Positions 2,029 through 63,257 are shown, numbered from the stretch's first letter. The stretch: DNA of 64,000 nucleotides from a virus (IMGVR_UViG_3300047160_036266:160001-224000); one strand, 5' to 3'. Translations and numbers: made by a program. The notes: generated by a model from the letters alone, not told the origin.

Positions 2029-2695
2029 AAAGCCGCCTGATAGTCTTTGACTCGCCATGAGTTACCTTAAAAAACTGCCGTGTAGGTGCCGATGGCCGAA
2101 TGGAATTAGCACTTATTACACCGCCCGTATAACGTATCAGATTGCGCATACATTCCGCAGAAGGATGCCATGTGTAGATATACTGGTCCCATGCCGGATA
2201 ATTAAGGAATTCGGCCACACTTCCCGGAAGTGAATTGATAGCCGTCTCGACTAATAGGCAGTCCTTCGTCTTGGCCATGCAGTTTTGCATGGCCAACACG
2301 GGGTTCTCGACATGATAAATTACGCCGAAAAGGAGAATAAGATCAAACCTGCGCCCTTTTAACCCAGGGTGATCGTCTAGGTGCTGCACATCAGCTTGAT
2401 GCACTGCGTATTCCAGGCCAAATGCCTTTTTGGTGAACTCGGTCTGGCGAACGAACAAAGGTTCATTGTCGATGGCCGTTACGGAGGCACCCATTTTCGC
2501 CAGTTCAACCGCCATATAACCACCATTGCAGCCGATGTCCAGTACACTTTTGCCGTGGACATCCGGGAGCAATGGCAATGCCTCATCCCACAGTACCTTG
2601 GGATAATGGGAGCCTGGAACAGTTTCGAGGCCGTTGGGGAAGGTGATATTTTGAAACCACCGACCATTGGCCTCGATTTCCTGTTGTGTGACCAT
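2021..2695 (-). CDS. Class I SAM-dependent methyltransferase (CmoB/DUF1698-like)
   Basis: WFQNITF N-terminus, VLDIGCNGGY, FDLILLFGVIYHVENP. Confidence 0.85.
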   Translation of the reverse strand: MVTQQEIEANGRWFQNITFPNGLETVPGSHYPKVLWDEALPLLPDVHGKSVLDIGCNGGYMAVELAKMGASVTAIDNEPLFVRQTEFTKKAFGLEYAVHQADVQHLDDHPGLKGRRFDLILLFGVIYHVENPVLAMQNCMAKTKDCLLVETAINSLPGSVAEFLNYPAWDQYIYTWHPSAECMRNLIRYTGGVISANSIRPSAPTRQFFKVTHGESKTIRRLYE

Positions 2696-2699
2696 GCCC

Positions 2700-2706
2700 T
2701 ATTTAG
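2700..2706 (-). promoter_or_regulatory. Putative phage late promoter (TANATA motif)
   Basis: CTAAATA-GGGC-ATG; the same 14-mer occurs at 26314-26327. Confidence 0.6.
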
Positions 2707-3263
2707 TGTACGTTGTCGATTCTTTTCATCGACTCGTAGGACAGAGTGAGCTTGTGGGTCAGCACGTCCGACCTGGCGTAGTCATATTCCACGAGATGGT
2801 CGTTTGGCTCGACGCCCTTGAAGTACAACATATAGAGCTTCCGCCCACAGCCGTCGAGGGCGGTGAGGGTTAGTTCGTGGTCCTTGTTCTGCGAATCGGC
2901 CAGATAGAGGAGGTAGTCGTGGGTCGTGAAATCGGGGTGTTCGTAGAGTTCCAGGTGGATGGTTTCTTCGTAGTAATTGATCGCGCAACGCTTTATCATC
3001 CACTTCATGTCCGGGTGGCTCTTCGGCTCGACAAGAAACCGGAACGTCCGGGGTATCGTCACATTCACCTGGGCAAAAGGGTGGCCGGCGAACCCCATAC
3101 TCTGTCCGGTTTCCTGGGGCTTCTGGCAGGACTGGAGCATGGCCTCTTTCAGCTTCTCCACTTCCTTTTGGGAGATAAAAGCCCCGCCCTTGCTGGGCTT
3201 ATCTTCGGTCTGGCCAATGCGCTCCTTCAGCGCTTCGGCTTGGGCGAGCCAATGGTTTTTCAT
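2703..3263 (-). CDS. Tail tube-like (gp19-fold) protein, divergent third copy
   Basis: LTLTALDGCG...YDYARSDVLTHKLTLSYE mirrors the C-half of the two tube genes; start 3263 has AGGAGG SD. Confidence 0.55.
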   Translation of the reverse strand: MKNHWLAQAEALKERIGQTEDKPSKGGAFISQKEVEKLKEAMLQSCQKPQETGQSMGFAGHPFAQVNVTIPRTFRFLVEPKSHPDMKWMIKRCAINYYEETIHLELYEHPDFTTHDYLLYLADSQNKDHELTLTALDGCGRKLYMLYFKGVEPNDHLVEYDYARSDVLTHKLTLSYESMKRIDNVH

Positions 3264-3280
3264 GTTCCTCCTTTGAGGGA

Positions 3281-4024
3281 TTAGAAGATTTGAAGTTGCA
3301 TCTTGTCGGTGATGTATAAGCACTCCCCCAACGCCAACTCGAACCAGATGTTGTATATGCCGCAGTCCATGTCGGTTGTGTCGAGGAGATAGTAACCGTA
3401 CCGCTTCTCACGGTAATCTACGGGCTGGTTGTCCACAATCAGCCGCAGGTCTTGCTCGCATGGCAGGCAGTCGCCGCATCGCTGCTCGATGGATATGTTT
3501 AGATCGGAAACGATGGCGAGGTTTTCGTAATATCTTGCTAAGTCGGTGCCTCTCGGTACATTCGGTGTTATTTCGCAAATGAGGTAGCGCTTGCTACCCT
3601 GTCTGATTTTGTTGGGGCGAAAGGTGATGCGGAAGTCATAGACGACTGGAATGGGCGTCGTGTACCAAAGGTCAGGATAAACCTGGAAGGGATTGGTGAC
3701 GGTCGCCGGACAGTCTTCATTCTCAAACAGAAGGGTCCACACGTCCCGGTAGTACCCAATGCAGTATTTCGGTTCATCAAGGCTAAGAGTGACGAGGTAG
3801 CGGCCCACGTCCTCCTGGGTGATGTTGGTGATCGTTTCGACCAAGCGCCAGTCGTTGGGGCAGTCCTGAACACAGGCGAGGGGTTGGTAGGAATCTCTGA
3901 AGTAAATATCCACCTTCTCGATGCCCGTGACGTTGGCCAGGTTATTGGAGTTGTAAACGAACAGCCGCAGATTAAGCTGGTCGCCTCCAATGGGATTCTG
4001 GTATCGTTCTTTAGTTGCCGCCAT
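3281..4024 (-). CDS. Hypothetical Cys-rich virion protein
   Basis: 247-aa beta-rich ORF in the tail operon, 10 Cys. Confidence 0.6.
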   Translation of the reverse strand: MAATKERYQNPIGGDQLNLRLFVYNSNNLANVTGIEKVDIYFRDSYQPLACVQDCPNDWRLVETITNITQEDVGRYLVTLSLDEPKYCIGYYRDVWTLLFENEDCPATVTNPFQVYPDLWYTTPIPVVYDFRITFRPNKIRQGSKRYLICEITPNVPRGTDLARYYENLAIVSDLNISIEQRCGDCLPCEQDLRLIVDNQPVDYREKRYGYYLLDTTDMDCGIYNIWFELALGECLYITDKMQLQIF

Positions 4025-4151
4025 GCTTCTTCAAATCCTTTTTGGGCTTCAAGGTTGCCTCGATGATATTTATGATCTGCTCCTCGTATCTTTTGAGGCG
4101 TTCCTTGAGTTTCTTCTTCTGGTTGATTTGATCTAGCCAGTGATTTTTCAT
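4011..4151 (-). CDS. Small 46-aa protein (not in ORF track)
   Basis: MKNHWLDQINQKKKLKERL...; ATGA overlap with upstream stop; N-terminus like the 3263 gene. Confidence 0.6.
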   Translation of the reverse strand: MKNHWLDQINQKKKLKERLKRYEEQIINIIEATLKPKKDLKKHGGN

Positions 4152-4387
4152 CGCTTAGCCCTTGCCTTTGCTTTACGCCGCTCTGATTCCATAGCGTCGT
4201 TTTCCTTCTGCTTCTGTTCGATAAACCGCTGAATGAGCCACTTCCTTTCCATAACCAACAGGCTCATGCTGTCCTTCTTCGACATATGTAGGTGGTATTG
4301 GAAAAAGAAGACCTCTTCTTCTAGCTGCTGCCAAAGTTCTACACTTGGGTCTTTTCCGCCTTCTTTCGCCGTGGGAAGAAAAAATTT
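4148..4387 (-). CDS. gp51-like / tail assembly chaperone -1 frame extension
   Basis: WQQLEEEVFFFQYHLHMS...MERKWLI resembles gp51/TAC C-terminal segments; no good own start; entered at the slippery site. Confidence 0.6.
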   Translation of the reverse strand, partial: KFFLPTAKEGGKDPSVELWQQLEEEVFFFQYHLHMSKKDSMSLLVMERKWLIQRFIEQKQKENDAMESERRKAKARAKR

Positions 4388-5418
4388 GCTTCGAGCGGTA
4401 ACTCGACCTCGAATTCCTGCATACAGCTTGGGCAATTGATCGGGATGGTGGTGTCCACGCCGAAGGGTGGTTCGTTGATACAGTTGCGAATAAAAGCAAC
4501 GTCCTGAATCGGCAGGTTCTTGACCAGGGTTTGAAGCTCACGTTTGTCGTTGATGCCCTCAATGTTTTCGAGGAGCAGAGCCGTCCGATAGGTGAGGGTG
4601 TCGTCGGGAGATGAATCCCCGAATATCTTGATGCGGCGGTCCCGGTACTCTTGAATCTCCTGCTCGTCCTTCCCTTTGGACAGGCGGTAGACGAAGCGGT
4701 AGCCAGTCTTTGGCAGGGTGTCGTGGAGTTCCGGTCCAAAGTCATCGGGGCATTGATCCACGAACAAGCTGTTCAGGTCGATGGCCGTGGAGAACTTCTT
4801 CTCGCACTCCGGGCACTTCACTTCCACGTCATATTCGGGCGTGTAGGAAATACCACGCAACCAGATGAGGAGGTAGGTGCGGTCGATGGTTAGCAACTCC
4901 TCGGCGCGAAAGCCTTCTTGCATACACCGCTGGAAAATCATGTTAATGGCCTGGCCCCTGCGGACAAAGCGGGGCGTGGCCAGGATTTGCTCCTCCTCAC
5001 CCGTCATGGCTCGAACGTGTATGACGCCATTGGCAGGACCATCATCGCCATCATAAAACCGTCCCTTGGAGGGAAGCTCCAGTGGCTCGAAAAGACCTTG
5101 CTGGCCCTTTAGGTCTTCCAGCAGCCGGGAAAGATCGGCACTGGAACCTTTCGGCACTATCGGCTCGTTCCTGGGCCGCTCACGCCCGTGGTGGGGCGTC
5201 TCCGTACCGGCCTTCTGCTGGCGGATGGCGTCCATAAAAGCCTTCGGTACGTTGCCGGAGATTTTCATGCCGGTTTCCGATTGCCGTTCCAGAGGATTGT
5301 CTTCGTCCCCGGCGTCCTTGGCGGCTGCCTTGCGCAGTGCCTCTCCAGCAGCCAGGGCCTCGTTAGCCGCCAAATCCTCTTGGTTGATCTTGCGGGGGCG
5401 GAATGTTTCTTCTGCCAT
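4339..5418 (-). CDS. T4 gp26-like baseplate hub / tail assembly chaperone
   Basis: LPSKGRFY, VRAMTGEEE, IDRTYLLIWLRGISY, CPEC and CPSC motifs, ends near FFF. Confidence 0.75.
   Translation of the reverse strand: MAEETFRPRKINQEDLAANEALAAGEALRKAAAKDAGDEDNPLERQSETGMKISGNVPKAFMDAIRQQKAGTETPHHGRERPRNEPIVPKGSSADLSRLLEDLKGQQGLFEPLELPSKGRFYDGDDGPANGVIHVRAMTGEEEQILATPRFVRRGQAINMIFQRCMQEGFRAEELLTIDRTYLLIWLRGISYTPEYDVEVKCPECEKKFSTAIDLNSLFVDQCPDDFGPELHDTLPKTGYRFVYRLSKGKDEQEIQEYRDRRIKIFGDSSPDDTLTYRTALLLENIEGINDKRELQTLVKNLPIQDVAFIRNCINEPPFGVDTTIPINCPSCMQEFEVELPLEANFFFPRRKKAEKTQV
4378..4387 (-). other. Putative -1 programmed frameshift site
   Basis: A AAT TTT TTC: two overlapping X XXY YYZ heptamers in the correct frame. 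Confidence 0.7.
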
Positions 5419-5468
5419 ATTGTCTCCTTAACTTACTACATTAGGGTAAGTGATTTTATTAGAGTACG

Positions 5469-5831
5469 ATGCACCTAAATATCCAAAACGTCGAAGAGCA
5501 TATTTTCATGGACAAAAAGGCCCAACTGGCGTTGCCCGACTTCAAACACCTATTCGACTCCTGGGCCTTGGCGACCCGAATAACGGCCCTGCGAAATCTC
5601 GGCAGGCGATCCCTCTTGGATTTCCTCAACGGCCTTAACGCTGACCACCTGCAAACGCTCTCCGACTTTTTCAAGGAAAGTGTCACGGTTGACAAATTGG
5701 ATTACCATGTCGTGCGCAACGTCGAGTGTTCGTTAGATGGGGTCGCTGAAGAAATGAGTAAATACGAGGGGTTCCTCGATGTAGCCGCATACAGGAAGGG
5801 CGACAATGTATATATTAGCTTTTGGAGGTAA
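5469..5831 (+). CDS. Hypothetical protein
   Basis: 120-aa ORF, first of a coupled 5-gene run. Confidence 0.65.
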   Translation: MHLNIQNVEEHIFMDKKAQLALPDFKHLFDSWALATRITALRNLGRRSLLDFLNGLNADHLQTLSDFFKESVTVDKLDYHVVRNVECSLDGVAEEMSKYEGFLDVAAYRKGDNVYISFWR

Positions 5832-5833
5832 TT

Positions 5834-6106
5834 TTGGACGAAATATTGGAACTGCACAAGAGAGACGAAGTGGAAGCCGAACCGGATGACTTTGTTACCT
5901 CGCGTAACGACGACGCCGAACTGCAAGGGCTGATCCTCTTCTATATCAACGTGGGCCAGATGCCGACACAGAAGGCCGAGAGCCTGACGCAACGCTGGAA
6001 GGAAAAGACCGAACGCGCATTCAGGAAGTTGCCGGAACGGTACAAAATCATCTGGATTCCCACCAGAGAATCGAAGACCAGGGTAGAATTCCTTCAGTTG
6101 CCGTAA
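5834..6106 (+). CDS. Hypothetical protein
   Basis: TTG start behind GGAGG. Confidence 0.65.
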   Translation: MDEILELHKRDEVEAEPDDFVTSRNDDAELQGLILFYINVGQMPTQKAESLTQRWKEKTERAFRKLPERYKIIWIPTRESKTRVEFLQLP

Positions 6107-6115
6107 GGAGGAGCT

Positions 6116-6445
6116 ATGGAAGTTGCAGCGGCTATTATCAACATCGTCCTGTTTGTCTTCGGCACCATTGGCCTAACCCACATCATCGTGGACAGCGCCA
6201 TTATGCAGAAGCCCAGGGATTGGCTGCGGGCGATCCTGCCAACCTACATCTTTCAGGTGTTCGAGTGTTACCAGTGTTGTGGCACCTGGGTCGGTTTCCT
6301 GTGCGGGTGGCTCTGCTTCGGACTTGGTTTCAAGGAGATATTCCTGGGCGGCATGGCAGGTAGCTTCCTGGCCTATTTGTCCGCCGCCCTCTTGACCTGC
6401 CTGGAGGCCAACTCCATCGTAGACGCCCCCAAGGAGGAAAAATGA
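6116..6445 (+). CDS. DUF1360-like membrane protein with CxxC
   Basis: Hydrophobic helices; CYQCCGTW motif; AGGAGG SD. Confidence 0.6.
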   Translation: MEVAAAIINIVLFVFGTIGLTHIIVDSAIMQKPRDWLRAILPTYIFQVFECYQCCGTWVGFLCGWLCFGLGFKEIFLGGMAGSFLAYLSAALLTCLEANSIVDAPKEEK

Positions 6446-6711
6446 GTATCAAGAACTACCAGTTCTACTGTGACTTTTGCGGCTATAAACGTCTTACCGA
6501 TGGCTCTGACGTACAGGATTTGGTGCCGGTCAAACAATCCCCCATTCCCGCCGGGGTGCCGTACCTGGACCCCGTGACCAAGAAAATCGTCACGCCCAAG
6601 GCGTTTAACCGGCCTAAGAAGTTCAAGTGCCCCAAGTGCGGCAGGGTTATCACCGCCCGCAAAATCATTACGGATACGAACCCCGATGCTGAAAAAGATT
6701 GGCTTGCTTGA
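6442..6711 (+). CDS. Zinc-ribbon protein
   Basis: CDFC...CPKC; ATGA overlap. Confidence 0.65.
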   Translation: MSIKNYQFYCDFCGYKRLTDGSDVQDLVPVKQSPIPAGVPYLDPVTKKIVTPKAFNRPKKFKCPKCGRVITARKIITDTNPDAEKDWLA

Positions 6712-7066
6712 AGTCAAGCAGGCGCTCCGGGACGGCAGGTTCCGAGAACGCCTTCCACCAGAACTGAACGAGGACATCCAAAAGTACCTCCAGAATCCCG
6801 GCTGCGCCTGCAACCTTCCCATCTATCGGCGTGTCATGCAATATGGCGGCGAACAACTCAAAGCCTATTTCCCCGATAAGGAACTGCCCAACATCGAGGA
6901 GGAAATCAAGAACCTTGCCCAGAACCACTGGCTGGTCATCAACTGCAATATCAGTGAACTGGAAGGACGGCTCACCAAACTCCCGCCCGGTCGCAAACAA
7001 ATCGCCGTCGCCCGCTATGAAGATCAAGTGACGGTCATCGTCAATGAGCTTGATTACCTTTACTAG
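6686..7066 (+). CDS. Hypothetical protein
   Basis: 126-aa ORF with PGCACN. Confidence 0.65.
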   Translation: MLKKIGLLEVKQALRDGRFRERLPPELNEDIQKYLQNPGCACNLPIYRRVMQYGGEQLKAYFPDKELPNIEEEIKNLAQNHWLVINCNISELEGRLTKLPPGRKQIAVARYEDQVTVIVNELDYLY

Positions 7067-8021
7067 CCACAATTAGTCGTGAATTACCGATCATCCTTTC
7101 ACAGCCCTCCAGCATTCTTTCGGGGTGGGACTTGTACTTCGGTATCTCCAGCGGCCAATCGTCCGACCGCAGCCGCCGGCTGCCCAGCACCAGGGCGTTC
7201 TTGTAGAAGATGCGGGCCTTTTCGTACTCCTTCTGGGCGTAATAGATGTCCGCCAGCAGGCACCAGAACTCAGCCATCAGCGGTTTGACCGCCAAGCACG
7301 TTATCACATTTCGTATTGCCTCCCGATAATCCTTCTTCACATGGGCCTGGACCTGCGCACAATAGTAGCGGGTCATGGTCATTGGCATCGCTGCGCTTGC
7401 GCTTTTCTCATGAAACAAATAGTAGTCGGCCAATTTCAAAAAATTGTCCCAACGGCGCTGGATGAGCATGACGCAACTCTGGTAGTAGTAAGGTTCTACG
7501 GCGAGCGGAAATCGCTCTTTCCATTTCTTTATAATTTCGAGCGCTTCCTGGGTGTGGTCTACGCTTTCCACCAGAATTACAGCGCCGAGGTCTTGGGCAG
7601 CGCCCGTAAGGGTTTCGTAGACCGGGTTTTGAAAAGCCAGGTTGGTTCGCTTGTTCCACAGGCGTATTTGTTTGGTGAGCATATCCCCCTGGACGCATGA
7701 CAGGTTGTAGGCGGTCTTGATCCTGGGAAGGGCGTCGAGGATGGTTTGGTGCCCGGTGGCCAACACTTCCCAGGGTTCGATGTACATTTGCCATTCCGAG
7801 TCACTGAGGGCGACCATTTCGTTGCGGACCTTGGAGTAGTCGTCGGACAGGCTGAGCCGGATGACTTCAGCCCTGTATTGCCGGCAAATCTTGTGGGTAC
7901 TATCCTTGCAGCCCAGGTCACAGGCGATGATATGGCAGCCCAGGGGCATCAGGGAGTCCAAGGCACGTTCGATGGTCTGTTCATTGTCCTTGAGGAGCAG
8001 GTGGCAAGTCAGGGGGTTCAT
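7041..8021 (-). CDS. GT2 glycosyltransferase-like domain fused to TPR repeats
   Basis: LLLKDNEQTIERALDS...IIACDLGCKDST...DYSKVRNEM; C-terminal TPR (AEFWCLLADIYYAQKEYEKARIFY). Confidence 0.8.
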   Translation of the reverse strand: MNPLTCHLLLKDNEQTIERALDSLMPLGCHIIACDLGCKDSTHKICRQYRAEVIRLSLSDDYSKVRNEMVALSDSEWQMYIEPWEVLATGHQTILDALPRIKTAYNLSCVQGDMLTKQIRLWNKRTNLAFQNPVYETLTGAAQDLGAVILVESVDHTQEALEIIKKWKERFPLAVEPYYYQSCVMLIQRRWDNFLKLADYYLFHEKSASAAMPMTMTRYYCAQVQAHVKKDYREAIRNVITCLAVKPLMAEFWCLLADIYYAQKEYEKARIFYKNALVLGSRRLRSDDWPLEIPKYKSHPERMLEGCERMIGNSRLIVASKGNQAH

Positions 8022-8169
8022 TTTTTCCGAAGCGTTGCTCTATTAGGAAGTTAAATGCACTCGCCTCGTGGACCATGCCGACCGACTCATAGTACACCTT
8101 GAGGTCACGGTAAATTTGCATGGCTTCGGGTCGTTGCAGGAGTTGGAAGTAAAGCTGGTATACGTCCAC
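7981..8169 (-). CDS. Small hypothetical protein
   Basis: 62 aa, GTG start, overlaps the GT2-TPR start. Confidence 0.5.
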   Translation of the reverse strand: MDVYQLYFQLLQRPEAMQIYRDLKVYYESVGMVHEASAFNFLIEQRFGKNEPPDLPPAPQGQ

Positions 8170-8186
8170 GGAGCTAATAGAGCAAA

Positions 8187-9035
8187 ATGCCGAGTAAATG
8201 TGAGATCGCTCCCATCAAGAATGCCTCTCCAGTCCAGAAACCCTGGGAGGGCAACTGCCACAAGAAACCGTGGGAATACCCAATCACCGCTGTTATTCCC
8301 TGCCTGAATACGTCGGAAACACTCCCCTTATGCGTGGAACTTCTCCGACTGCAAACCACCCCACCCTATATCCTGGTCATTGACACCGGCAGCAGTGAGG
8401 AGCATTTGGCCCAGGTCGAAGCTTTGCGCAGTGATGATCTGGAGGTACTGGCGCTACGGTTGAACGGGGTGCAACATCCATCCGACTTTGTTTCGATGGC
8501 GATGGACTGTGCCTTTACCATGTGCAGAACCGAGTTCCTGTTCGCCACCCACGCCGATTGCTTTCTCCGGCGGCGGGACTTCCTCGAAGAACTGATGGAG
8601 AAATGTAAGGTATCCCCGGTCGTTGGTTATGAGATAAGCCCCAGAGCGCACGCCGATTGGCATGGGATGCTTTCCCACACCGCCAGCATGTATCATATGC
8701 CGACGATGGACAGGATCGGCTTTGGTTGGAGCCTTCGACGCCTCTGCAACCTCTTTAACCTGACCGACCACAAACCCAACCCGTTACGCCCTGGCTGGCC
8801 GGACACCGAAATCCTGGGCAACTACATCCTCCGTCACCATAAGATCAAACCCCTCCTCATCGGTTCCGAACAGAACTTCTCCCGGCAGGTGGACGACAAT
8901 ATCGACCATTTCCGCAGCTATACGTCCGCCAAACTCTACAGTCCACAATTCTTCGCCCAGGCAAGCACATGGTTTGCCCTCGCCAAGAAAGAAGCACTCG
9001 AAAGAATAGAAGAATGGAAGAGGACATCAGCCTAA
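8187..9035 (+). CDS. GT2/GT-A glycosyltransferase
   Basis: ITAVIPCLNT, ILVIDTGSS, FATHADCFL (DxD-like). Confidence 0.8.
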   Translation: MPSKCEIAPIKNASPVQKPWEGNCHKKPWEYPITAVIPCLNTSETLPLCVELLRLQTTPPYILVIDTGSSEEHLAQVEALRSDDLEVLALRLNGVQHPSDFVSMAMDCAFTMCRTEFLFATHADCFLRRRDFLEELMEKCKVSPVVGYEISPRAHADWHGMLSHTASMYHMPTMDRIGFGWSLRRLCNLFNLTDHKPNPLRPGWPDTEILGNYILRHHKIKPLLIGSEQNFSRQVDDNIDHFRSYTSAKLYSPQFFAQASTWFALAKKEALERIEEWKRTSA

Positions 9036-9134
9036 TTCGCACCAATGTGCGCATAAAAATGAAATCGCTGATGCAGATATATAGATACCATTTTTTCACG
9101 CTTATTCCCTGTTAAGCCCAGGGAAAGGAGTTGG

Positions 9135-9677
9135 ATGTCGAGTGAATACCTCAACAACAAGGTCTTTGAGAATATCATCTCAAGGTTCCAGCAAGCGAAG
9201 CGAGAAAGGGCGAAGTACGAGTTATTGATTGAAGACATGCGTGAATGCGAGCAGCGGGTGAGGAGGAAGATGGATCGGACCTGGGTGCCGCCGACCTGGC
9301 TGGTGCGGCAGGAGGACTTTGAGGGCATCGTGAGTAACTTTCACGAATCCCAGAAGGAGTTGGCCAGTGCCTTTTACACTCTGTCGGAGAACATCGTGCG
9401 CTATGCGAAGTTCAACCTGATAGACGCCGACGACGCCATACAGGAGGGCGTTATGATCTGTTTCGAGAAGATCGACCGCTTTGATCCGGCCAAGGGTAAG
9501 GCTTTCAACTACATGACGACGTGTATCCTGAACCACTTCCGGCAGTTATACCGGACGGCTCGTAATTACAACGAGCTAAAGAAGAAGTACCACGATTTTC
9601 TTCAGCATCAGTTTGAGCAGACTCTCATCAAGAATGGCAAGGAGCGGCCTGCCTACAAAGGCTCACTGAAGGCATGA
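9135..9677 (+). CDS. Phage RNA polymerase sigma factor (gp55-like, region 2 only)
   Basis: DDAIQEGVMICFEKIDRFDPAKGKAFNYMTTCILNHF is a sigma region 2 signature; AAGGAG SD. Confidence 0.85.
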   Translation: MSSEYLNNKVFENIISRFQQAKRERAKYELLIEDMRECEQRVRRKMDRTWVPPTWLVRQEDFEGIVSNFHESQKELASAFYTLSENIVRYAKFNLIDADDAIQEGVMICFEKIDRFDPAKGKAFNYMTTCILNHFRQLYRTARNYNELKKKYHDFLQHQFEQTLIKNGKERPAYKGSLKA

Positions 9678-9701
9678 TGAACTATAATGATATGGGTGAC
9701 T

Positions 9702-9938
9702 ATGAAAGGAAACTTACTTGAAGTCTTGGAAAGGCAGGAGCTTATCCAGAAACTCATTGACCGAGGTTACGGCCCGATGATTGAAGCTTTCCTCATGAAT
9801 GAGGGGAAGGTTTACACCAAGAAGGGTCGGTTGAACAAGAGCGGCGCGTGCCGGGTACTCGGCTGGAAGCCGAAGGAACTGGAGGACGCCCTCAACAAAT
9901 GTCAAGAGATTCTGCGAAGCGACCTGCTCGAAGAGTAA
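9702..9938 (+). CDS. Small HTH-like protein (sigma region 4-like)
   Basis: NKSGACRVLGWKPKELEDALNKCQEILR. Confidence 0.55.
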   Translation: MKGNLLEVLERQELIQKLIDRGYGPMIEAFLMNEGKVYTKKGRLNKSGACRVLGWKPKELEDALNKCQEILRSDLLEE

Positions 9939-9944
9939 TATGAA

Positions 9945-9979
9945 CGGCGCATTCGGCAACGGGTGCGCCGATTTTGTTT
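9945..9979 (+). terminator. Intrinsic terminator
   Basis: CGGCGCATTCG-GCAA-CGGGTGCGCCG then ATTTTGTTT, between convergent genes. Confidence 0.7.
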
Positions 9980-10499
9980 ATATCTGGAAGTACGCCCGGT
10001 CATAGCGAAGGGTCAGTTCACAGACGACCACATCACTGGAACTCATTTCCAAGTCACCGAATTCGGCCACCTGGGGCCAGGCGTTGTCATAAATCCAAGT
10101 TTCGATGGTTTTGCCACAGCCGTCGAACAGCTTGAGGGTGGCCCTGCGCTTAAAGTTGCCGGAACAGGAAGGATTCCAACTGCCCTGCTGAGCATCATAG
10201 GCAATGCGAACCCAGGTCATTACGGGATTCATGCCCGTCGATACATCGTACAGCACCAGGGAGATGGGTTTCCAGTCTGGTTTGCTGGGGAAGTAGATGG
10301 TTTCATTCATGTGTTGGGCTTCTATTTCCTTGAAAGTCAGGCTGGGTCGTGCCGACTTCTGCGGCGGCAGGACGCTAACCTGCGCACCTGGGGTGCCGGA
10401 AACATTATTGATCTCCATTACCCAACGGAATTTGCGCCGCCAGCAAGCCTGGGAATTCCATCCCATGCCCATTTGTTGGCCCTGACACAGATCAGCCAT
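9978..10499 (-). CDS. Tail tube protein (gp19-like), copy 2
   Basis: RKFRW, YFPSKPDWKPISLVLYD, AWPQVAEFGDLEMSSSDVVVCELTLRYD. Confidence 0.85.
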   Translation of the reverse strand: MADLCQGQQMGMGWNSQACWRRKFRWVMEINNVSGTPGAQVSVLPPQKSARPSLTFKEIEAQHMNETIYFPSKPDWKPISLVLYDVSTGMNPVMTWVRIAYDAQQGSWNPSCSGNFKRRATLKLFDGCGKTIETWIYDNAWPQVAEFGDLEMSSSDVVVCELTLRYDRAYFQI

Positions 10500-10511
10500 A
10501 ATACTCCCGTG

Positions 10512-10558
10512 AAAAGGAAAACTCCCGCACCCGCCAGTGCGGACGGATACGGGAGTTT
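10512..10558 (-). terminator. Terminator/attenuator-like hairpin between the tube genes
   Basis: 15-bp stem AAACTCCCGTATCCG/CGGGTGCGGGAGTTT followed by TCCTTTT. Confidence 0.6.
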
Positions 10559-10580
10559 AATTTTGACCAGATGCGGGCAA

Positions 10581-11186
10581 TTAGCAGCCGTCGCAGCAAG
10601 GATTGATGGCTCCGCTGCAACCATTGAGTGGTTCGTACTTAACTTCGCTGAAGCGAAGGGTTAGTTCGACCGTGCATTCTTCGGAGGAGCTATAGTCAAG
10701 CTCGCCAAAGTTAATGGCCTGCGGCCACATATTCTTCATGGTCCACTTTTCCAGGCCCTTACCGCAACCGTCGTACAATATCAGGGTGCCGATGCCGGAA
10801 TAACCCGGTACATTGGGACCGCCAGTTTTGGACGACATGGAGAGGCACACCGGGTCCGTGAAGTTGTAGACCGTTGCCAACCAGGAAAAGAGCTTACCCA
10901 ATGCCTGGGCGGCGTTGCCAAGTCCGGCAATATCATAGTAAGTGACTGTGATAGTTTCCCAGGCCCCCTTGCCGGGTATCCACATTTTCCCGTGGAGGTA
11001 GTTGATTTCCGTTTCCTCAATAGTGAGGTTAGGACGGGCTGCCAGCTTTACGATAGAGGCCGGAACCGTATAATTGTTGCAGGCGGTCTGAATGGAGAAC
11101 GTCCATCTAAATTTCCGCTTGAATATGACATCGGCCAGGCCAAGGTCGCCCATGCCCATGTCTTGTCCTTTACAAAGTCCTGACAT
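10581..11186 (-). CDS. Tail tube protein (gp19-like), copy 1
   Basis: RKFRW, IPGKGAWETITVTYYD, WPQAINFGELDYSSSEECTVELTLRF; follows the sheath gene. Confidence 0.9.
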   Translation of the reverse strand: MSGLCKGQDMGMGDLGLADVIFKRKFRWTFSIQTACNNYTVPASIVKLAARPNLTIEETEINYLHGKMWIPGKGAWETITVTYYDIAGLGNAAQALGKLFSWLATVYNFTDPVCLSMSSKTGGPNVPGYSGIGTLILYDGCGKGLEKWTMKNMWPQAINFGELDYSSSEECTVELTLRFSEVKYEPLNGCSGAINPCCDGC

Positions 11187-11205
11187 ATTTTCTCCTTATA
11201 CGACC

Positions 11206-13641
11206 TTAGTTAAACGTAGGTGCGCCGGCACTGGTCCAGTCTCCGGTCCTGTGGATGGAGAACTCAATAAACATGAATTCTGCCGCTCGTGTGGGCTGAA
11301 TACCGATTCTGGCCCTAAATTCATTGCGGTCGATAACATCGGGTGTGTTGATCGTCGTGTCCGCTAGGATGATGTAGTCGTACAGACCACGGCCAACCTT
11401 TATCTCCTTCAGGATGTTGTCAGCCATCGTGGTGAACGTAGAGCGGAAGATGTCGTCGTTCGGGTCGAAGAGCATGATGCGGGATGCAGCACGAATCTTC
11501 TTCTCGCATACGAACATGCAACGCCGCACATTCACACGGTCCAGGGCGGTTGGCTGACGCTGGAGCGTCTTCTGGCCCCAGATCAGGAAGCCGTCAATAT
11601 CCACGAACTGGATAATCGGGTTGATGGCATTGCGGTTGCCGTACATCAGGTCGCGCTCGGCCAAGGTCGGGCGGTTGAATACGTCCGTGACCCCTGGCAC
11701 CACGCCACGGGTGACACCCGCAGGTGCGAACCACGGTGCGGAAAGGAAGTCCGACCGGGCAATGGCTGCCAAAACACCGCCGGATGGCGGAACCCACACG
11801 TCCACACGGTTATAGCTGTCGTTGATCTTGACCCACGGCCAGTACAAAGCCCCGAAGTCGGAGTCAAAGCGGCTGAGGTTCAAGGGGTGCGTACCGTTCT
11901 GCCAGGCGATGATCTCGTTGACCGTAAGGCCGAACGGAGGATCAATAATGGCCAGGCTGTCCATGCGGTAGTTCTGGCACACGTCCAACAGCGAGGTTAC
12001 TACTGCCGTTGAGGCGTGGCCGGGGCAGGCCAGCAGGTCAATATCCACCTGTTCTGGCTCGCTCAGAGCGTACATGCCGGTGAAGGCATAGGGGCTGCCG
12101 ATTAGCAGGGTGTCCTGAAGATCGGGGTCGGATGGGATGCCATCGCTGCCGCCGGTTAGCTGATAACCGGCCAGGCCACTGTCAGCCGGTGGGGCACCGA
12201 CGCTCACGTTATCCTGTACCCGGATGAAGTCCGACACCAGCGCCAGGAAGGTTTCCACATAGAACGTGCTGGAGGAGTCCTTGGTCAAGTTGCCCCAGGC
12301 TTCCAGTGGCACGCCGTTGTTGTAAACCGACATATTGAAGGTGCCGTCACGGGTGTTGTTCGTCACTACCACGGACGTAAGATTGCCGTCGAGTCCGGGC
12401 GAGTCGGCGGTGATCGTGAAGGAGGCAATGCCAGTTGTATTTGGCGCACCGTCCACGATGCCGGCCTGCTCGATGCCGGTGTCACCCGTCACCATGATTG
12501 GGCTAACGCCCACGGCGGTCAGGTTGTCAAAGCCAAAGATGTCGTTGGCCGTGCTGCTGGATTTGACCAGGAGGCGGGCGTCAACGCCGGTCGATAGCGT
12601 GCTGACGGTTAGCTGATCGCCAGTTGCCGAGAAGACAAAGCCACCCGGCAGATTGTTTGCTACATAGTCATTCAACTGAGTCACGATGGTGCCGATACTC
12701 TGCGGACCACCTTCGAGGCTCGCCATATCTACGGTCTGCATGATTTGGTCGATCAGTACGTTGTCAGTACCGTCAACCACGATCTGAAGGTTCAAACCCG
12801 TTAGACCGCTGAAGTCGAACGTACCAGCGGCCTGGTAGCCGTTGACCGGGAACTTCTGGTTAGCACCCGTGGTGCTGCCGGCGGTCATGCCCACGCCAAG
12901 GCCAGACACGTTGTTGCCTGGCGGGGTTGCCGATGGCGTCGAGCCACCGTACATGGCGTCTTGAACGGCCACCAACTCCAGAGAGGAGGTCGGGCCATAA
13001 GCCCAGGTTGTCTTCACGCCCAAATATTGCTGTGCGCCGTACTGCCGAACGTAGAACATGATGCCGTCGTGAATCAGGTCCAACTGTGAGTTCAGATCGT
13101 TGACCAGATCAGTAACCGACCAGGCTTGGTTCGTGTTTGGGGCAGGGCGGTTGGCGATGTTCAGGACCACGAGGGTCTTGGCGGACAATACGCCATTCAA
13201 ACGCCACCGGAAGAAATAGTCGTGTGGCGTGGTGCCGTGCATACCATCGAAGTAGTATGGGCCGGCGGTAGCCGTGAATATATCAATGGTGTCGCCCGCT
13301 GCCGGTGCCGGGCAGGATGCCGTCGTGGCCTGCTCGTCCGATACGGGGTCCACATCTGCCACTCGGACGACGTAGAGTTCACTTCCCGTCTGAAGATACA
13401 ACAGGCCGGCATAGATCAGGTATGGGTCGCCCACGTCAGGGTGCGGGAACCCGAACACCAAACTTAACTGGCGTGCAGTGTTAATCATGGTCGGTGAGTT
13501 GATCGGACCCTTGCTGGCAAAACCTACCAGGCCAGCACGGTGGAACGACTGCTCAGGAGCTATAAAGCTCAAATCTTTCTCTGCGATACGAACACTCGGA
13601 CTGATCGTGTTCGACGGCGGAAACCCCTGTAATATCGCCAT
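11206..13641 (-). CDS. Contractile tail sheath protein (gp18-like)
   Basis: SPSVRIAEKDLS, GLVGFASKGP, ALYWPWV, PWFAPAGVTRG, GQKTLQ...LDRVNVRR, PTRAAEF. Confidence 0.95.
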   Translation of the reverse strand: MAILQGFPPSNTISPSVRIAEKDLSFIAPEQSFHRAGLVGFASKGPINSPTMINTARQLSLVFGFPHPDVGDPYLIYAGLLYLQTGSELYVVRVADVDPVSDEQATTASCPAPAAGDTIDIFTATAGPYYFDGMHGTTPHDYFFRWRLNGVLSAKTLVVLNIANRPAPNTNQAWSVTDLVNDLNSQLDLIHDGIMFYVRQYGAQQYLGVKTTWAYGPTSSLELVAVQDAMYGGSTPSATPPGNNVSGLGVGMTAGSTTGANQKFPVNGYQAAGTFDFSGLTGLNLQIVVDGTDNVLIDQIMQTVDMASLEGGPQSIGTIVTQLNDYVANNLPGGFVFSATGDQLTVSTLSTGVDARLLVKSSSTANDIFGFDNLTAVGVSPIMVTGDTGIEQAGIVDGAPNTTGIASFTITADSPGLDGNLTSVVVTNNTRDGTFNMSVYNNGVPLEAWGNLTKDSSSTFYVETFLALVSDFIRVQDNVSVGAPPADSGLAGYQLTGGSDGIPSDPDLQDTLLIGSPYAFTGMYALSEPEQVDIDLLACPGHASTAVVTSLLDVCQNYRMDSLAIIDPPFGLTVNEIIAWQNGTHPLNLSRFDSDFGALYWPWVKINDSYNRVDVWVPPSGGVLAAIARSDFLSAPWFAPAGVTRGVVPGVTDVFNRPTLAERDLMYGNRNAINPIIQFVDIDGFLIWGQKTLQRQPTALDRVNVRRCMFVCEKKIRAASRIMLFDPNDDIFRSTFTTMADNILKEIKVGRGLYDYIILADTTINTPDVIDRNEFRARIGIQPTRAAEFMFIEFSIHRTGDWTSAGAPTFN

Positions 13642-13645
13642 AGTC

Positions 13646-13867
13646 TTATTCTCCCTTTCGCAACTTGTTTGGTATGTGCTTTGTGGAAATCAATCCCATT
13701 TCTTCTACACGCTGTATATAGGGCGTATTCCGTTCATCTTCCAAGAGATAAACATTTTTTCCCGAACCAACTCCCGGAATATTAAGCGTGGTAAATGCCC
13801 TTGGAGCCATCCGTGACCGGACGATCAATTGCACAGGAAACTTGTTCTTGTTCCGAATTTCTAGCAT
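13646..13867 (-). CDS. Small hypothetical protein in tail operon
   Basis: 73 aa between the gp15-like and sheath genes. Confidence 0.6.
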   Translation of the reverse strand: MLEIRNKNKFPVQLIVRSRMAPRAFTTLNIPGVGSGKNVYLLEDERNTPYIQRVEEMGLISTKHIPNKLRKGE

Positions 13868-14880: not shown

Positions 14881-14924
14881 GGCAATCTCGCTATAATAGG
14901 GTAGTTAGGGTTAATAAGGCAAAA

Positions 14925-15761: not shown

Positions 15762-15878
15762 AAGCCTTTCGTATCAAGAAGCGTGACCAACGCCTTCCGA
15801 TCTTTATTCAGGAGGTTCGCACGCCCCTGTCACGCCCTCACTTCAGTCGGGTGATTTTCTTTCAAGTTCACCCGCCGA

Positions 15879-16358: not shown

Positions 16359-16366
16359 CTGGCCCC

Positions 16367-17849: not shown

Positions 17850-17873
17850 AGTGAAGGTATATAAGCCCCAAAT

Positions 17874-17909: not shown

Positions 17910-17921
17910 GATATGGTAAAT

Positions 17922-59534: not shown

Positions 59535-60713
59535 TTACCCCCAGATAGTCCCTGTGACGCCACCCGCAAGCTGATTGGTGTAAAAGTCATAAAAAGTGAT
59601 GACGTTGCTTCCTGTGATGTACTCGACGGGCTGCAAGTAGTGATAGCCAATCCCCGGAAATTGATTGTATTCGGCAGTTATCATACCTTCGATAGCTGAT
59701 GCTGTCCCACCAAACTGAGGGATATAGGAGTCGGTAAAGCTCGGCGCTCCGGTTCCGTCGAGAGTTAGTCCTAAACTCCCGAAGGTGTTTACAGCACAGG
59801 AGAGTATGCACGAGGCCCGCACATTGACCACCCGCACGGGCGGGGTGAGGCCGTATACAAATTCCACGGCTCGGACTTTGGTAACGTCACCGTTTTGACC
59901 ACGCCAAGCCAAAGGCCCGGTGACATTCCAGCTTCCGGTCTGTGGGAAGTTTGCGATCCGGCGTGGTAACTGGTTGTAGAAGTTCCAAACGAAGCGCTGT
60001 TTTGGAGCATCAGCCGTCGTGGTTGCGCTGGTAGGGTAGATTGTTCCCAGATAGCGCCAGCCATTGGTAACTACGCTGACCATCGGTATGCCGTCCACAT
60101 AATTGATAGCCGTCTGCCGGGTGGTTGCGGTTTGCCATTGGGCGTAGTTCAACTGTAACCCAGCGTTATCTACGACGAACACATCGTAGGGTAAACCGGC
60201 TGTTAAACCCGATAAAGACAAGCTCAGTTCGGTGAAATCAAAAATTCTCCACTGACCCGCTCCCTGCGTTTGTGGCTCCGGTATGGCGATCTGGCCCCCT
60301 GCCAGGGGCGTAAAGTAGAGAGTGGAACCGCTCGTGGAGTCCGCACCTGGCTGTCCGCTGACCAATCCCAAACGTCCTTCGCAGAGAGAAGGTCGCACAC
60401 GGGGCAGATACGCACTTATTGCTGTCAAGAACACATCTTTGTTGCCGCCAGAAAAATTGGTGAACGATCCTGTCCCCACGCTGCCATCAAGGACATAGCT
60501 CCTTGTCAGGGTGGCGCTGCCGCTGTCGATGCTACCGACGCCCGTTTCCCAATCCCCGGCGGTTTGGTGGGCGATGCAGTAGGTGGTCTGGAGGGCAGCG
60601 CCGGTGGTGTTCAACTGCTTCCAGGGGCCGGTGGCGGCATTGAGAGTGAAATTGCCCGTCCCGGTTGACGTTGACGTTTGCTTGCGGCGGTCGTAGTACA
60701 GGGGATTCGGCAT
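59535..60713 (-). CDS. Tail fibre/spike-like protein, paralog 3
   Basis: DRRKQTSTSTGTG...WETGVG...LTR...NFSGGNKDVF; CEGRL...TLYFTP. Confidence 0.75.
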   Translation of the reverse strand: MPNPLYYDRRKQTSTSTGTGNFTLNAATGPWKQLNTTGAALQTTYCIAHQTAGDWETGVGSIDSGSATLTRSYVLDGSVGTGSFTNFSGGNKDVFLTAISAYLPRVRPSLCEGRLGLVSGQPGADSTSGSTLYFTPLAGGQIAIPEPQTQGAGQWRIFDFTELSLSLSGLTAGLPYDVFVVDNAGLQLNYAQWQTATTRQTAINYVDGIPMVSVVTNGWRYLGTIYPTSATTTADAPKQRFVWNFYNQLPRRIANFPQTGSWNVTGPLAWRGQNGDVTKVRAVEFVYGLTPPVRVVNVRASCILSCAVNTFGSLGLTLDGTGAPSFTDSYIPQFGGTASAIEGMITAEYNQFPGIGYHYLQPVEYITGSNVITFYDFYTNQLAGGVTGTIWG

Positions 60714-60746
60714 TTATACCCTCCCGTGGTCATAGAATGCGCTCAT
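60714..60746 (-). CDS. 10-aa leader mini-ORF MSAFYDHGRV
   Basis: TACATA 5 nt upstream; TAA abuts the next ATG. Confidence 0.45.
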   Translation of the reverse strand: MSAFYDHGRV

Positions 60747-60784
60747 ACCCGTATGTAGTTCTTTTAGATGCAAACCTGCGTGGA

Positions 60785-61981
60785 TTACGCCCAGATGGTG
60801 CCAATGACGCCGGTGGCGTTGCGATTAGCAACGCTGTCATACCATATCACGCCATAGGCTCCTACTGAGATGTCCTCCACGGGTTGCAAATAATGATAGC
60901 CAACGGTTGCTGGAATTTGGTTGTATTCGGCTGTGGCCGTGGTCTGCGCGAAATAGGAGTTGTTGTAAGCGCTACACTCTATTACAACGGAATCGGTATA
61001 GCTCGGCGCTCCGGTTCCATCCAAGGTTAGGCCAAGTCCGACCCAGGTGCCTGTTGTTCCAAGGACGACATAGATCGTAGCGCGAGCGTTGACAGGTCGA
61101 AAGGGTGCCAGGCCGAGGACAAATTCCAGGGCGCGTGCTTTGGTGGCGTCGGCATTCTGAGCGCGCCAGGCCAACAGGCCAGTTGCGGACCAGCTTCCGG
61201 TGCCTGGGAAATTCGCCATTCGCCGTGGCATCTGGTTGTAATAATTCCACACGAATCGCTGTTTGGGGCTGTCAGCCGTGTTGGACGTGTTAGCGGCGTA
61301 AAAGGTGCCCAGGTAGCGATAGCCTTGGGTCGCTGGTCCGACCATTGGAATGCCGTCTACATATGTAATTGCCGATGAGCGGGTCGTTGCGTTGGTCCAC
61401 TGGTTTGCGCCAAGGGACAAGGTGCCGTTGCTATCCCCCACAAAAATATCGTAGCACATGCCGGCAGTAAGACCAATCACACCTAAACTGATGCTCATTT
61501 CAGTGAAATCGTACAGTTTCCACTGGCCGGTTCCCAAAGTAGGTTCCGGCATGGCGATCTGGTTCCCCATGTAAGGGGTAAAATACAAAGTTGACCCGCT
61601 CGCTGAGTCGGCACCGGGCGACCCGCTAACCAGTCCCAACCGTCCCTCGCAAATCCCAGGTCTTACGCGAGGTAGGTACGAACTAATGGCCGTTGAGAAC
61701 ACATCCTTGTTCCCACCCGAAAAATTGGTAAATGTACCGGGGCCGGCGCTGCCATCGAGGGCGTAAGTTCTAGTTAGCGTGCTGCTTGTACTGTCAACGC
61801 TGCCCACGCCTGTCTCCCAATCCCCTGCTGTCTGGTGGGCTATACAGTAGGTGAGGGTGAGAGCAGCGCCGCTGGTGTTCAGTTGCTTCCAAGGGCCTGT
61901 CGGAGCCGTGAGAGTAAAGGCACCCGTCCCGGTAGTAATGGAAGGTTGCTTGCGGCGGTCGAAGTAGACGGGATTGGGCAT
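60785..61981 (-). CDS. Tail fibre/spike-like protein, paralog 2
   Basis: Same motifs end to end as its neighbours. Confidence 0.75.
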   Translation of the reverse strand: MPNPVYFDRRKQPSITTGTGAFTLTAPTGPWKQLNTSGAALTLTYCIAHQTAGDWETGVGSVDSTSSTLTRTYALDGSAGPGTFTNFSGGNKDVFSTAISSYLPRVRPGICEGRLGLVSGSPGADSASGSTLYFTPYMGNQIAMPEPTLGTGQWKLYDFTEMSISLGVIGLTAGMCYDIFVGDSNGTLSLGANQWTNATTRSSAITYVDGIPMVGPATQGYRYLGTFYAANTSNTADSPKQRFVWNYYNQMPRRMANFPGTGSWSATGLLAWRAQNADATKARALEFVLGLAPFRPVNARATIYVVLGTTGTWVGLGLTLDGTGAPSYTDSVVIECSAYNNSYFAQTTATAEYNQIPATVGYHYLQPVEDISVGAYGVIWYDSVANRNATGVIGTIWA

Positions 61982-61998
61982 TTTTTCCTTTCTTTGAA

Positions 61999-63171
61999 TT
62001 AGGCCCAGATCGTACCTTGAACGCCGCCGACAAAGCGGTTGGCATAATAATCGTACCAGCCTACGGTTCCCGTGCCGACCTGGATGGCTTCTGTGGGCTG
62101 AAGGTAGTGATACCCGATAGGTGGAATTTGATTATATTCGGCAGTCATAAAACCTGACTGGTTGCCGCCACCTTCCACTGTGAACGCATCAGTGAGGCTA
62201 GGTGTCCAGTTTGCCGATGAAGCATCTAGTGTCAGCCCTAGTTCTGGGAAGGTGCCTGCGGGTGTGTTGTAGTAAATCGCCGCACGGACATTAACAGGTC
62301 GCAGCGGAGGCGTTAGGCCGATAACGAACTCAACGGCTCGTGCTTTGGTGGTATCGGTGTTTTGTCCCCGCCATGCCAGGTTGCCCACTCCGCTCCAGGT
62401 TCCGGTGGCAGGAAAGTTTCCCATTCGGCGTGGTATCGAGTTGTAGTAATTCCACACAAACCTCTGTTTGGGGTAGTCCGCCGTGGTAGTCGCAGTAACC
62501 GGGTTGATCGTACCCAGGTAGCGGTAATTACCTATCAATGGAATCCCGTCCACAAAAGTAATTGCCACCGAACGCGCTGTTGCACTGGCCCATTGTTGAG
62601 TGCTTAAACCTAAAACGCCGTTGGTATCAACGAGAGAAACGTCAAATGGGATGTTTGCAATTTGCCCGGAAATCGGAGTGCTGATTTCGGTAAAGTCATA
62701 CAGTTTCCACTGGCCGGCTCCCATACTGGCGGTTTCAGGCATGGCGACCTGAGTGCCTTGAAATGGGGTAAAGTACACTGTCGAACTACTTGTTACGTCT
62801 GTGGTGGGCGAGCCGCTTTGCAGTCCCAGGCGTCCATGACACGTCCAGGGGTTGACGCGAGGCATATAGTTTGCCAGCGGCGTGATGAAAACGTCTTTAT
62901 TGCCGCCGGAGAAATTAGTAAGATTACCCGCCCCGGCGCTGCCATCAAACACTGTACTCCGTGTGAGGGTCTGACTAAGGTTGTCCACACTGCCCAGGCC
63001 GACTTCCCAATCACTGGCGGTCTGGTGGGCAATACAATAGGGAATAGCAAGAGTCGAAGGCGTTGTATTCAGGGCCTTCCACGGGCCGACCACGGGATTA
63101 AGCGTGAAAGCGCCCTGTCCCGTGCTTGTAGACACCTGCTTGCGGCGGTCGAAGTAGATGGGATTGGGCAT
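61999..63171 (-). CDS. Tail fibre/spike-like protein, paralog 1
   Basis: Same motifs end to end as its neighbours. Confidence 0.75.
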   Translation of the reverse strand: MPNPIYFDRRKQVSTSTGQGAFTLNPVVGPWKALNTTPSTLAIPYCIAHQTASDWEVGLGSVDNLSQTLTRSTVFDGSAGAGNLTNFSGGNKDVFITPLANYMPRVNPWTCHGRLGLQSGSPTTDVTSSSTVYFTPFQGTQVAMPETASMGAGQWKLYDFTEISTPISGQIANIPFDVSLVDTNGVLGLSTQQWASATARSVAITFVDGIPLIGNYRYLGTINPVTATTTADYPKQRFVWNYYNSIPRRMGNFPATGTWSGVGNLAWRGQNTDTTKARAVEFVIGLTPPLRPVNVRAAIYYNTPAGTFPELGLTLDASSANWTPSLTDAFTVEGGGNQSGFMTAEYNQIPPIGYHYLQPTEAIQVGTGTVGWYDYYANRFVGGVQGTIWA

Positions 63172-63204
63172 TTATACCCTCCTTTGGTCGTATAAAGCGC
63201 TCAT
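63172..63204 (-). CDS. 10-aa leader mini-ORF MSALYDQRRV
   Basis: TACATA 5 nt upstream; TAA abuts the next ATG. Confidence 0.45.
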   Translation of the reverse strand: MSALYDQRRV

Positions 63205-63257
63205 ATACCTATGTAGGTCCACCAGCCACAATTGTCGCAGGAACACTCCCTTAAACC

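Follow-up and report, generated by a model that had tools for sequence, protein, structure and literature searches.

A candidate phage promoter box set four to five nucleotides before start codons, with probable leaderless mRNAs, in a giant-phage genome

This work concerns the hexamer TAnATA (n, any base) and its placement just before start codons in a 64,000-nucleotide stretch of viral DNA (the window; bases 160001-224000 of the 343,421-base-pair (bp) IMG/VR virus record IMGVR_UViG_3300047160_036266; GC 55.8%). Box and ATG lie four or five nucleotides (nt) apart at many times the expected frequency. The explanation that we favour, with moderate confidence, is a phage-specific, two-part promoter that depends on a phage sigma factor and starts transcription on the A of the AUG, so that leaderless mRNAs result. 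It is built on the motif, its spacing, architecture and conservation, on the family and fold of the sigma factor, and on the synteny and fold of a small neighbouring protein; from these we infer what reads the box, where exactly transcripts start, when they are made and that their translation is leaderless. Coordinates are window positions unless marked 'genome'. The record encodes a myovirus tail sheath; tblastn with the sheath returned distant myoviruses only, and the nearest cultured relatives of the phage are remote. Megablast of a 3,219-aa (aa, amino acid) gene against cultured phages gave no match.

An earlier note, made by a model from the sequence alone, had listed 14 ATG codons at short distance from TANATA, and all 14 sites were found where it had placed them. 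TANATA followed by exactly four nt and ATG (TANATA-N4-ATG) occurs eight times in the window, at 2695(-), 18354, 22249, 26325, 31558, 32611, 37286(-) and 40981, against 0.46 +/- 0.69 in dinucleotide shuffles; spacing N5 occurs four times, at 16900(-), 24392, 60746(-) and 63204(-), against 0.66 in shuffles; spacing N6 is found at 23180 and 36690(-). The sequence CTAAATAGGGCATG is indeed identical at two sites, 2693-2706(-) and 26314-26327, and the sites described with longer spacing, at 19427(-), 32156, 41416, 22221(-), 17849(-) and 46699, are present as well; the AT content, put at about 42%, was computed as 44%. Over the whole record TANATA-N{k}-ATG is found 21 times at k = 4 and 28 times at k = 5, that is 49 sites against about 11 expected (Poisson P = 4e-17; background of 5.5 per bin, from k = 9-40). 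Positional enrichment outside the window, the lack of which had been named beforehand as refutation, amounts to 37 sites against 8.5 at k = 4-5 (P = 5e-13).

Genes were called over the whole record with a codon-bias model blind to the motif and to ribosome-binding sites, which gave 422 genes. Starts called in this way lie 13 times at k = 4 and 10 times at k = 5 (23 genes), with about one in each other bin, and control words of the same composition as the box show no spacing peak before called starts. An artefact of chance or composition in AT-rich intergenic DNA has next to no probability left: intergenic DNA is more AT-rich than coding DNA and other A/T words also stand upstream of starts, but the shuffles (0.46 and 0.66 against 8 and 4), the internal spacing control (P = 4e-17), the flat control words and replication in 65 loci of relatives led us to reject a chance origin of the peak.

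The k = 4-5 peak in the whole record belongs to ATG; TTG, CTG, ATC and ATA have none, and GTG has a small bump at most (7 + 5 against about 8). Confinement to ATG agrees with the AUG requirement of 5'-terminal start recognition. A rare candidate for a leaderless start other than AUG lies at genome 261551(-), where TAAATA-N4-GTG precedes a gene with a capsid-tag-like N-terminus (VNFKEWLRLDE); capsid-tag-like denotes here the pattern M-x-x-F-x-E/Q-W/F, which resembles the T4-type capsid targeting sequence. Open reading frames (ORFs) of at least 45 codons with a positive coding score are opened at 38 of the 49 box-N4/5-ATG sites. With starts guided by the box, 46 of the 422 genes (about 11%, or one in nine) are box-led and predicted to be leaderless; a further 33 have a box at most 45 nt upstream (short-leader class), and the remaining 343 are counted as other. 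A GGAG-type Shine-Dalgarno (SD) sequence centred at -9 to -7 precedes about 60% of the starts called for the 422 genes, so that the phage is not SD-free in general; at the box-led genes a -10-type element 4-7 nt before the start codon leaves no room for an SD, as is characteristic of leaderless genes. Sites in the window with a box before a gene start, or before an ATG at longer spacing, are as follows.

2693-2705 (-): TAAATA-N4-ATG, start of the 224-aa methyltransferase-like gene 2021-2695
16898-16911 (-): TATATA-N5-ATG, start of the 177-aa gene 16367-16900
17847-17863 (-): TATATA-N8-ATG, with the ATG at 17849
18344-18356 (+): TATATA-N4-ATG, start of the 207-aa gene 18354-18977
19425-19445 (-): TAAATA, then 12 nt with a weak SD and ATG 19427; 63 aa, capsid-tag-like N-terminus MTFKEWL
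22219-22251: palindromic TATATA 22239-22244 between divergent genes, 4 nt before ATG 22249 (+; neck/adaptor protein, 303 aa, phrog_211) and 17 nt before ATG 22221 (-; 934 aa)
24381-24394 (+): TACATA-N5-ATG, start of the 201-aa gene 24392-24997, with a terminator T-run upstream
26315-26327 (+): TAAATA-N4-ATG, start of a 159-aa NUDIX gene
31548-31560 (+): TAGATA-N4-ATG, 193-aa protein with capsid-tag-like N-terminus MNFRQWLE
32133-32158 (+): TATATA, then 17 nt with SD GGAGG and ATG 32156; short-leader form, N-terminus MQTFLEW
32601-32613 (+): TATATA-N4-ATG, 199-aa protein with N-terminus MWRFREYV
37284-37296 (-): TATATA-N4-ATG, opening the 170-aa gene 36774-37286, where the T-run of a terminator also forms the A/T block described below
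40971-40983 (+): TAAATA-N4-ATG, 52-codon ORF
41384-41418 (+): TATATA, then 26 nt with SD and ATG 41416; leadered form
46685-46701 (+): TAAATA-N8-ATG, 95-aa protein with N-terminus MNSFKEFF

Non-coding DNA makes up 10.6% of the record and holds 154 of its 322 TANATA hexamers, a 4.5-fold enrichment. When 37 good leaderless sites are aligned on the box, a second element appears: A/T reaches 82-88% at positions -18 to -15 from the first T of the box, A is favoured at -20, and the positions flanking the A/T block are GC-rich. Boxes 9-45 nt before SD-led genes have 68-78% A/T in the block; boxes within coding sequence, taken as controls, have about 52% at -18 to -15 and no block. The base 5' of the box is C in 57-67% of sites, and any base can stand third in the box (T>A>C>G). 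Of 38 sites, 36 have a pyrimidine directly before the ATG, and in 29 this base is C; over all genes the share with a pyrimidine there is 60%. Start sites preferred by bacterial RNA polymerase have a pyrimidine at -1 followed by a purine as +1; taken together with the pyrimidine before the ATG, this would place +1 on the A of the ATG. Non-coding enrichment, the phased A/T block and conservation before orthologues support a role of TAnATA as a promoter element. The earlier note had compared the box with the -10-only sequence read by T4 gp55; a promoter made of a -10 element only was not borne out here, given the A/T block 15-18 bp 5' of the box and the gene for a sigma-region-4-like protein that adjoins the sigma gene. 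Many of the boxes 9-60 nt upstream of starts serve divergent genes. At several sites, 24350-24386(+) and 37296-37330(-) in the window and genome 148322(-) and 57391(+), an intrinsic terminator supplies with its T-run the A/T block of the promoter that follows, so that terminator, promoter and start codon lie within about 45 nt.

The same arrangement is seen in relatives. Relatives of the neck/adaptor gene at 22249 were found in 65 IMG/VR loci (53-87% amino-acid identity; GC 27-60%). Most of these carry TAnATA 4-8 nt before the orthologous neck ATG despite fully diverged surrounding DNA; in a subset the box lies farther upstream, with AGGAGG in between. Across about 1 Mb (megabase) of sequence from the 65 loci the spacing peak at 4-5(-6) nt is present in every GC class. 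At box-N4/5-ATG sites with ORFs of at least 60 codons the A/T block recurs at -18 to -16, and the base before the ATG is a pyrimidine in 37/38, 35/39 and 71/81 sites.

The proposed reader of the box and its neighbour are encoded side by side.

9135-9677 (+): 180-aa sigma factor of the gp55 family with region 2 only, proposed to read the box
9702-9938 (+): 78-aa sigma-region-4-like helix-turn-helix protein, candidate reader of the upstream A/T block

The 9135 protein matches Pfam Sigma70_r2 (3.4e-8) and no other Pfam domain, and is the sole sigma region 2 match in the whole record, in which a sigma region 4 profile finds no match. A further match, at 6.6e-8, is to phrog_234, the T4 gp55 family (T4 gp55 on the same profile, 2.9e-69); pairwise BLASTP against gp55 is weak (E = 0.001), and phmmer against PDB sequences gave no match. 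Its AlphaFold model (predicted local distance difference test (pLDDT) 84) superimposes on the sigma domain 2 structure 4x8k with Z 9.6 and on T4 gp55 (7d7d_F) with Z 8.8 and a root-mean-square deviation of 2.4 A over 94 residues. Foldseek matches are weak (E 0.03-0.3), and all are sigma factors. More than 1,200 homologs with 60-96% identity occur on contigs of up to 673 kb (kilobases), and residues 76-152 (region 2) are almost invariant among them. This sigma is far better conserved than structural proteins, in phages of GC 27-60%. In our own alignment, N8, Y126 and T128 correspond to N13, Y97 and T99 of T4 gp55, residues that form the pockets into which bases -9, -12 and -8 flip (PMC7892883). 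By analogy with gp55, the 9135 sigma probably reads the TAnATA box. Upstream of the sigma gene and its SD, at a distance of about 50 nt, TATATAGATA at 9078-9087(+) contains two overlapping boxes with an A-rich stretch 5' of them, and the sigma gene may activate itself through this box.

In each of the 14 relative loci with both genes the 78-aa gene adjoins the sigma gene, and in 12 it follows the sigma gene directly in the same orientation; its product shows 46-74% identity. The model of the protein (pLDDT 89.5) was searched against 48,161 PDB chains, and sigma region 4 domains make up most of the 25 best matches, over the full length and with Z 4.7-6.1; they include region 4 of SigB, CnrH, SigH, WhiG, SigL, SigD4, SigK and of SigE on -35 DNA. 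Foldseek gave E-values above 1, not significant, and a Pfam search of the protein found nothing significant. A profile of the 78-aa family run against PDB sequences matched designed repeats only, and these matches were judged spurious. The protein is possibly the second half of a split sigma and a candidate reader of the A/T block; that a sigma-2 protein and a free-standing sigma-4-like one act together as a split sigma on a two-part promoter is a reasonable but unproven proposal.

The proposed mechanism would run as follows. In 5' to 3' order the promoter would comprise the A/T block (-18 to -15 relative to the box), a gap of 14 bp, (C)TAnATA, a spacer of 4-5 nt whose last base is C or T, and the ATG. 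Host core RNA polymerase carrying the gp55-family sigma (9135-9677) would melt the DNA at the box, and initiation would fall 5-6 nt downstream of the box, on the first purine that follows a pyrimidine. At about 46 of the 422 genes that purine would be the A of the start codon, giving an mRNA that begins with AUG and is translated without an SD leader. At other units the same promoter would yield a very short leader beginning at the SD, or a leaderless mini-ORF of 1-11 codons that ends on the real start codon. A partner would probably recognise the upstream A/T block, and the most plausible candidate is the sigma-region-4-like protein whose gene follows that of the sigma.

T4 late transcription (gp55, gp33, gp45) resembles this system in its small, region-2-only sigma of the same profile family and fold, in an A/T box (TA-A-ATA) that precedes the start by about one helical turn, and in morphogenesis genes among its targets. 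The T4 late promoter is the 8-bp TATAAATA at -13 to -6, which leaves 5 nt before +1, and stands without an upstream element; in the late promoter of phage Aeh1 a C replaces the A at -12 (PMC2988020). The 5 nt between box and +1 equal the k = 5 spacing here, and the C of Aeh1 resembles the C 5' of the box here; both fit a (C)TAnATA-N5-ATG arrangement with +1 at the A. In a register that would put +1 on the A, the core (C)TAnATA agrees with the last six positions of the T4 box except for the free base at -9, with C in place of A at -12 as in Aeh1. Differences from T4 are that the third box base is free here, that a position-specific A/T block lies 15-18 bp upstream here, whereas T4 has no upstream element, and that box and start codon are not fused in T4, whereas they are in about 11% of genes here; the T4 genome has 4 ATAAATA-N3-7-ATG against 7 for the reversed control. 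T4 gp33 is described as structurally unrelated to sigma region 4 (PMC7892883). The gp33 profile phrog_254 had no match in the record and none in five relatives, of which two (572 kb and 511 kb) are complete, with terminal repeats, although a very divergent homolog could escape; of the gp45 profiles, phrog_223 and PF02916 had no match in the record and phrog_223 none in the same five relatives. The C-terminus of the 9135 sigma, a variable and basic stretch, has nothing that corresponds to the clamp-binding SLDFLYEAND of T4 gp55.

Leaderless mRNAs known elsewhere (lambda cI from PRM; mycobacteria, PMC4633059) likewise have a -10-type element a few bases before the AUG, lack an SD and strongly need AUG over GUG or UUG. 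What differs here is the apparent tie to a phage promoter class and a phage sigma, with a whole regulon involved that includes capsid-targeted cargo, and a leaderless design kept across a giant-phage clade whatever the GC. Our literature search found no publication on leaderless mRNAs from gp55-type late promoters; the AR9 paper remarks that phage transcripts are often leaderless. Split sigmas (B. subtilis SigO-RsoA, SPO1 gp33/gp34, Tn916 Sig7-Sig8; PMC10141391, bioRxiv 10.64898/2026.10.01.756105) share with the present pair the side-by-side genes for a sigma-2 and a small sigma-4-like protein and the two-part promoter; unlike in those pairs, the upstream element here consists of a short stretch of A/T that stands nearer to the box than a canonical -35 would. 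The likeness lies in synteny and fold, and binding of polymerase and DNA is predicted for the present pair.

Where the box lies farther from the gene, the SD starts about 5-10 nt past it, for example in TATATAgaaaaggagg and TATATAcaaggagg; with the same start point, such boxes would produce very short leaders. The 14 short-spacing ATGs had all been listed as starts. Those at 23180, 36690(-), 60746(-) and 63204(-) open mini-ORFs of 6-11 codons, not genes, and each of these four mini-ORFs ends at or overlaps a real, SD-led start codon. Their sites in the window are listed here.

23168-23200 (+): TATATA-N6-ATG, 6-codon mini-ORF that holds SD GAGGGG and overlaps the real start 23193
36655-36702 (-): TAGATA-N6-ATG, mini-ORF of 11 codons that shares the overlap ATGA between its stop and the SD-led start 36658
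60714-60757 (-): TACATA-N5-ATG, 10-codon mini-ORF with SD; its stop TAA abuts ATG 60713 of a 392-aa fibre-like gene
63172-63215 (-): TACATA-N5-ATG, 10-codon mini-ORF with SD; its stop TAA abuts ATG 63171 of a 390-aa fibre-like paralog

Mini-ORFs of 1-11 codons placed 4-6 nt past a box were noted at 23180-23200(+), 36690-36655(-), 60746-60714(-) and 63204-63172(-) in the window and at genome 317294(-). They contain the SD of the next gene, with junctions TAAATG, ATGA, ATGTAATG and ATGAATGA, and at least five of them have a stop that adjoins or overlaps the start codon of the main gene. From these junctions it looks as if leaderless mini-ORFs couple translation into SD-led genes, among them two fibre paralogs and the gene for a 4,154-aa protein. 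Three fibre-like paralogs of 390-398 aa stand in tandem at 59535-63171(-); the first and third have their own box and 10-codon mini-ORF, the middle one has neither.

The mini-ORFs also bear on whether the mRNAs are truly leaderless. The box could be a promoter or an RNA-level signal, with transcription starting elsewhere or a few nt upstream and the ATG near +1 reflecting a preference for certain initial sequences, or with the box serving as a site of RNA processing or translation enhancement. Several box-proximal ATGs open only a mini-ORF or a start-stop (ATG TAA) before an SD-led gene, so that an ATG beside the box is not in every case a gene start, and another register of the box on the gp55 pockets would shift +1 downstream. 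We nevertheless consider it quite improbable: the 38 of 49 sites with coding ORFs and the 23 independently called starts speak for real gene starts, the mini-ORF stops at main start codons (at least five) fit translation, and the phased A/T block together with the palindrome shared by divergent genes argues for a DNA signal. A start inside the 4-5-nt spacer would give a leader of at most 3 nt without SD, functionally still leaderless.

A second, smaller class of predicted leaderless genes has the host-type hexamers TATAAT or TAAAAT 5-6 nt before an ATG without SD, for example at 1449(-), 30453(-) and 40868(-) in the window and at genome 45934(-), 79371(+) and 238107(-). Non-coding TAnAAT sites have a T-rich patch at -23 to -21, equivalent to a -35 at 17-bp spacing. 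The two classes thus differ in the upstream element, the A/T block of TAnATA lying 5 bp closer, and in the distance to the ATG, which is 1 nt longer in TAnAAT; this argues, from sequence features, for two different holoenzymes at work. Separate TTGACA-type promoters, which the earlier note had seen before other genes, are weakly visible in this form (TAnAAT plus the T-rich patch at 17 bp); a generic TTGACA/TATAAT sigma-70 scan of window positions 1-20000 gave 14 hits against 11.2 expected, not above shuffles.

The second class lends some weight to a reading in which TAnATA is a variant -10 recognised by the host primary sigma, so that the genes would be leaderless without forming a phage-sigma regulon and without necessarily being late. 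Host polymerase apparently makes leaderless mRNAs from TATAAT/TAAAAT in the same genome, non-structural genes are found among the box-led ones, and the sigma gene itself has a box upstream. The -10 hexamers of primary sigmas end in a nearly invariant T, whereas TAnATA ends in A; neither a TG extension nor a -35-type signal at 17 bp is seen with it, its A/T block being 5 bp closer than the TAnAAT patch; its distance to the ATG is 1 nt shorter; and box and almost invariant phage sigma occur together across relatives of GC 27-60%. On this balance we regard reading by the host sigma as unlikely.

Capsid-tag-like N-termini are found in 15 of the 46 leaderless genes, 5 of the 33 short-leader genes and 13 of the 343 others. 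Box-led morphogenesis genes encode the large terminase, the neck protein and two fibre-like paralogs, and the giant protein of 4,154 aa is box-led too; in the PHROG annotation of 20 box-led genes most were without function. The regulon is enriched for morphogenesis genes and is not exclusive to them. That it is the late class, as had been proposed, is probable on gene content: the enrichment agrees with it, and box-led helicase, NUDIX and methyltransferase genes do not.

Several points weigh against a phage-sigma-dependent, leaderless late promoter, and are brought together here. Besides the helicase, NUDIX hydrolase and methyltransferase-like genes, which are not morphogenetic, a primase gene is preceded by a weaker box. 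A search of RNA runs for window 16400-26390 found none that contains the sequence; two runs shared 6-7% of its words, as assembled contigs, in which 5' ends are not visible. Non-palindromic boxes 9-60 nt upstream of starts are 27 sense and 20 antisense, a strand bias that is not significant. The pairing of the 9135 sigma with the box is drawn by analogy. In the alternative register, in which TAnATA corresponds to T4 positions -13 to -8 and its first A occupies the Y126 pocket, T4 geometry puts +1 past the ATG. With gp33 and gp45 not found, the activation mechanism of T4 is not simply transferable, and the fold scores of the 78-aa protein are modest (Z 5-6).

A wider version, to which we give tentative credence short of even chances, is that in a large clade of giant phages the regulon for morphogenesis and capsid cargo is transcribed from a two-part promoter that works without a clamp, is recognised by a split sigma and starts on the AUG; the clade would thereby make phage-private leaderless late mRNAs that bypass the SD, some of them coupled to downstream genes through mini-ORFs. 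If true, about a tenth of the genes in a widespread clade of 0.3-0.7-Mb phages would be expressed as leaderless mRNAs; this would be a viral use of leaderless translation on the scale of a regulon, which T4, the model for this sigma family, is without. Late protein synthesis could then be separated from SD-dependent initiation, for example when host or early phage factors alter ribosomes. The design of promoter and 5' end would be simple and portable, and the two adjoining genes would be a candidate new split sigma pair.

The box followed by 4-5 nt and ATG may further serve as a guide to true start codons overlooked by gene callers in this clade, and several starts in the record were corrected in this way. 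Composition-called and box-guided starts differ at 16906 versus 16900(-), 24389 versus 24392(+), 32773 versus 32611(+) and 41335 versus 41416(+).

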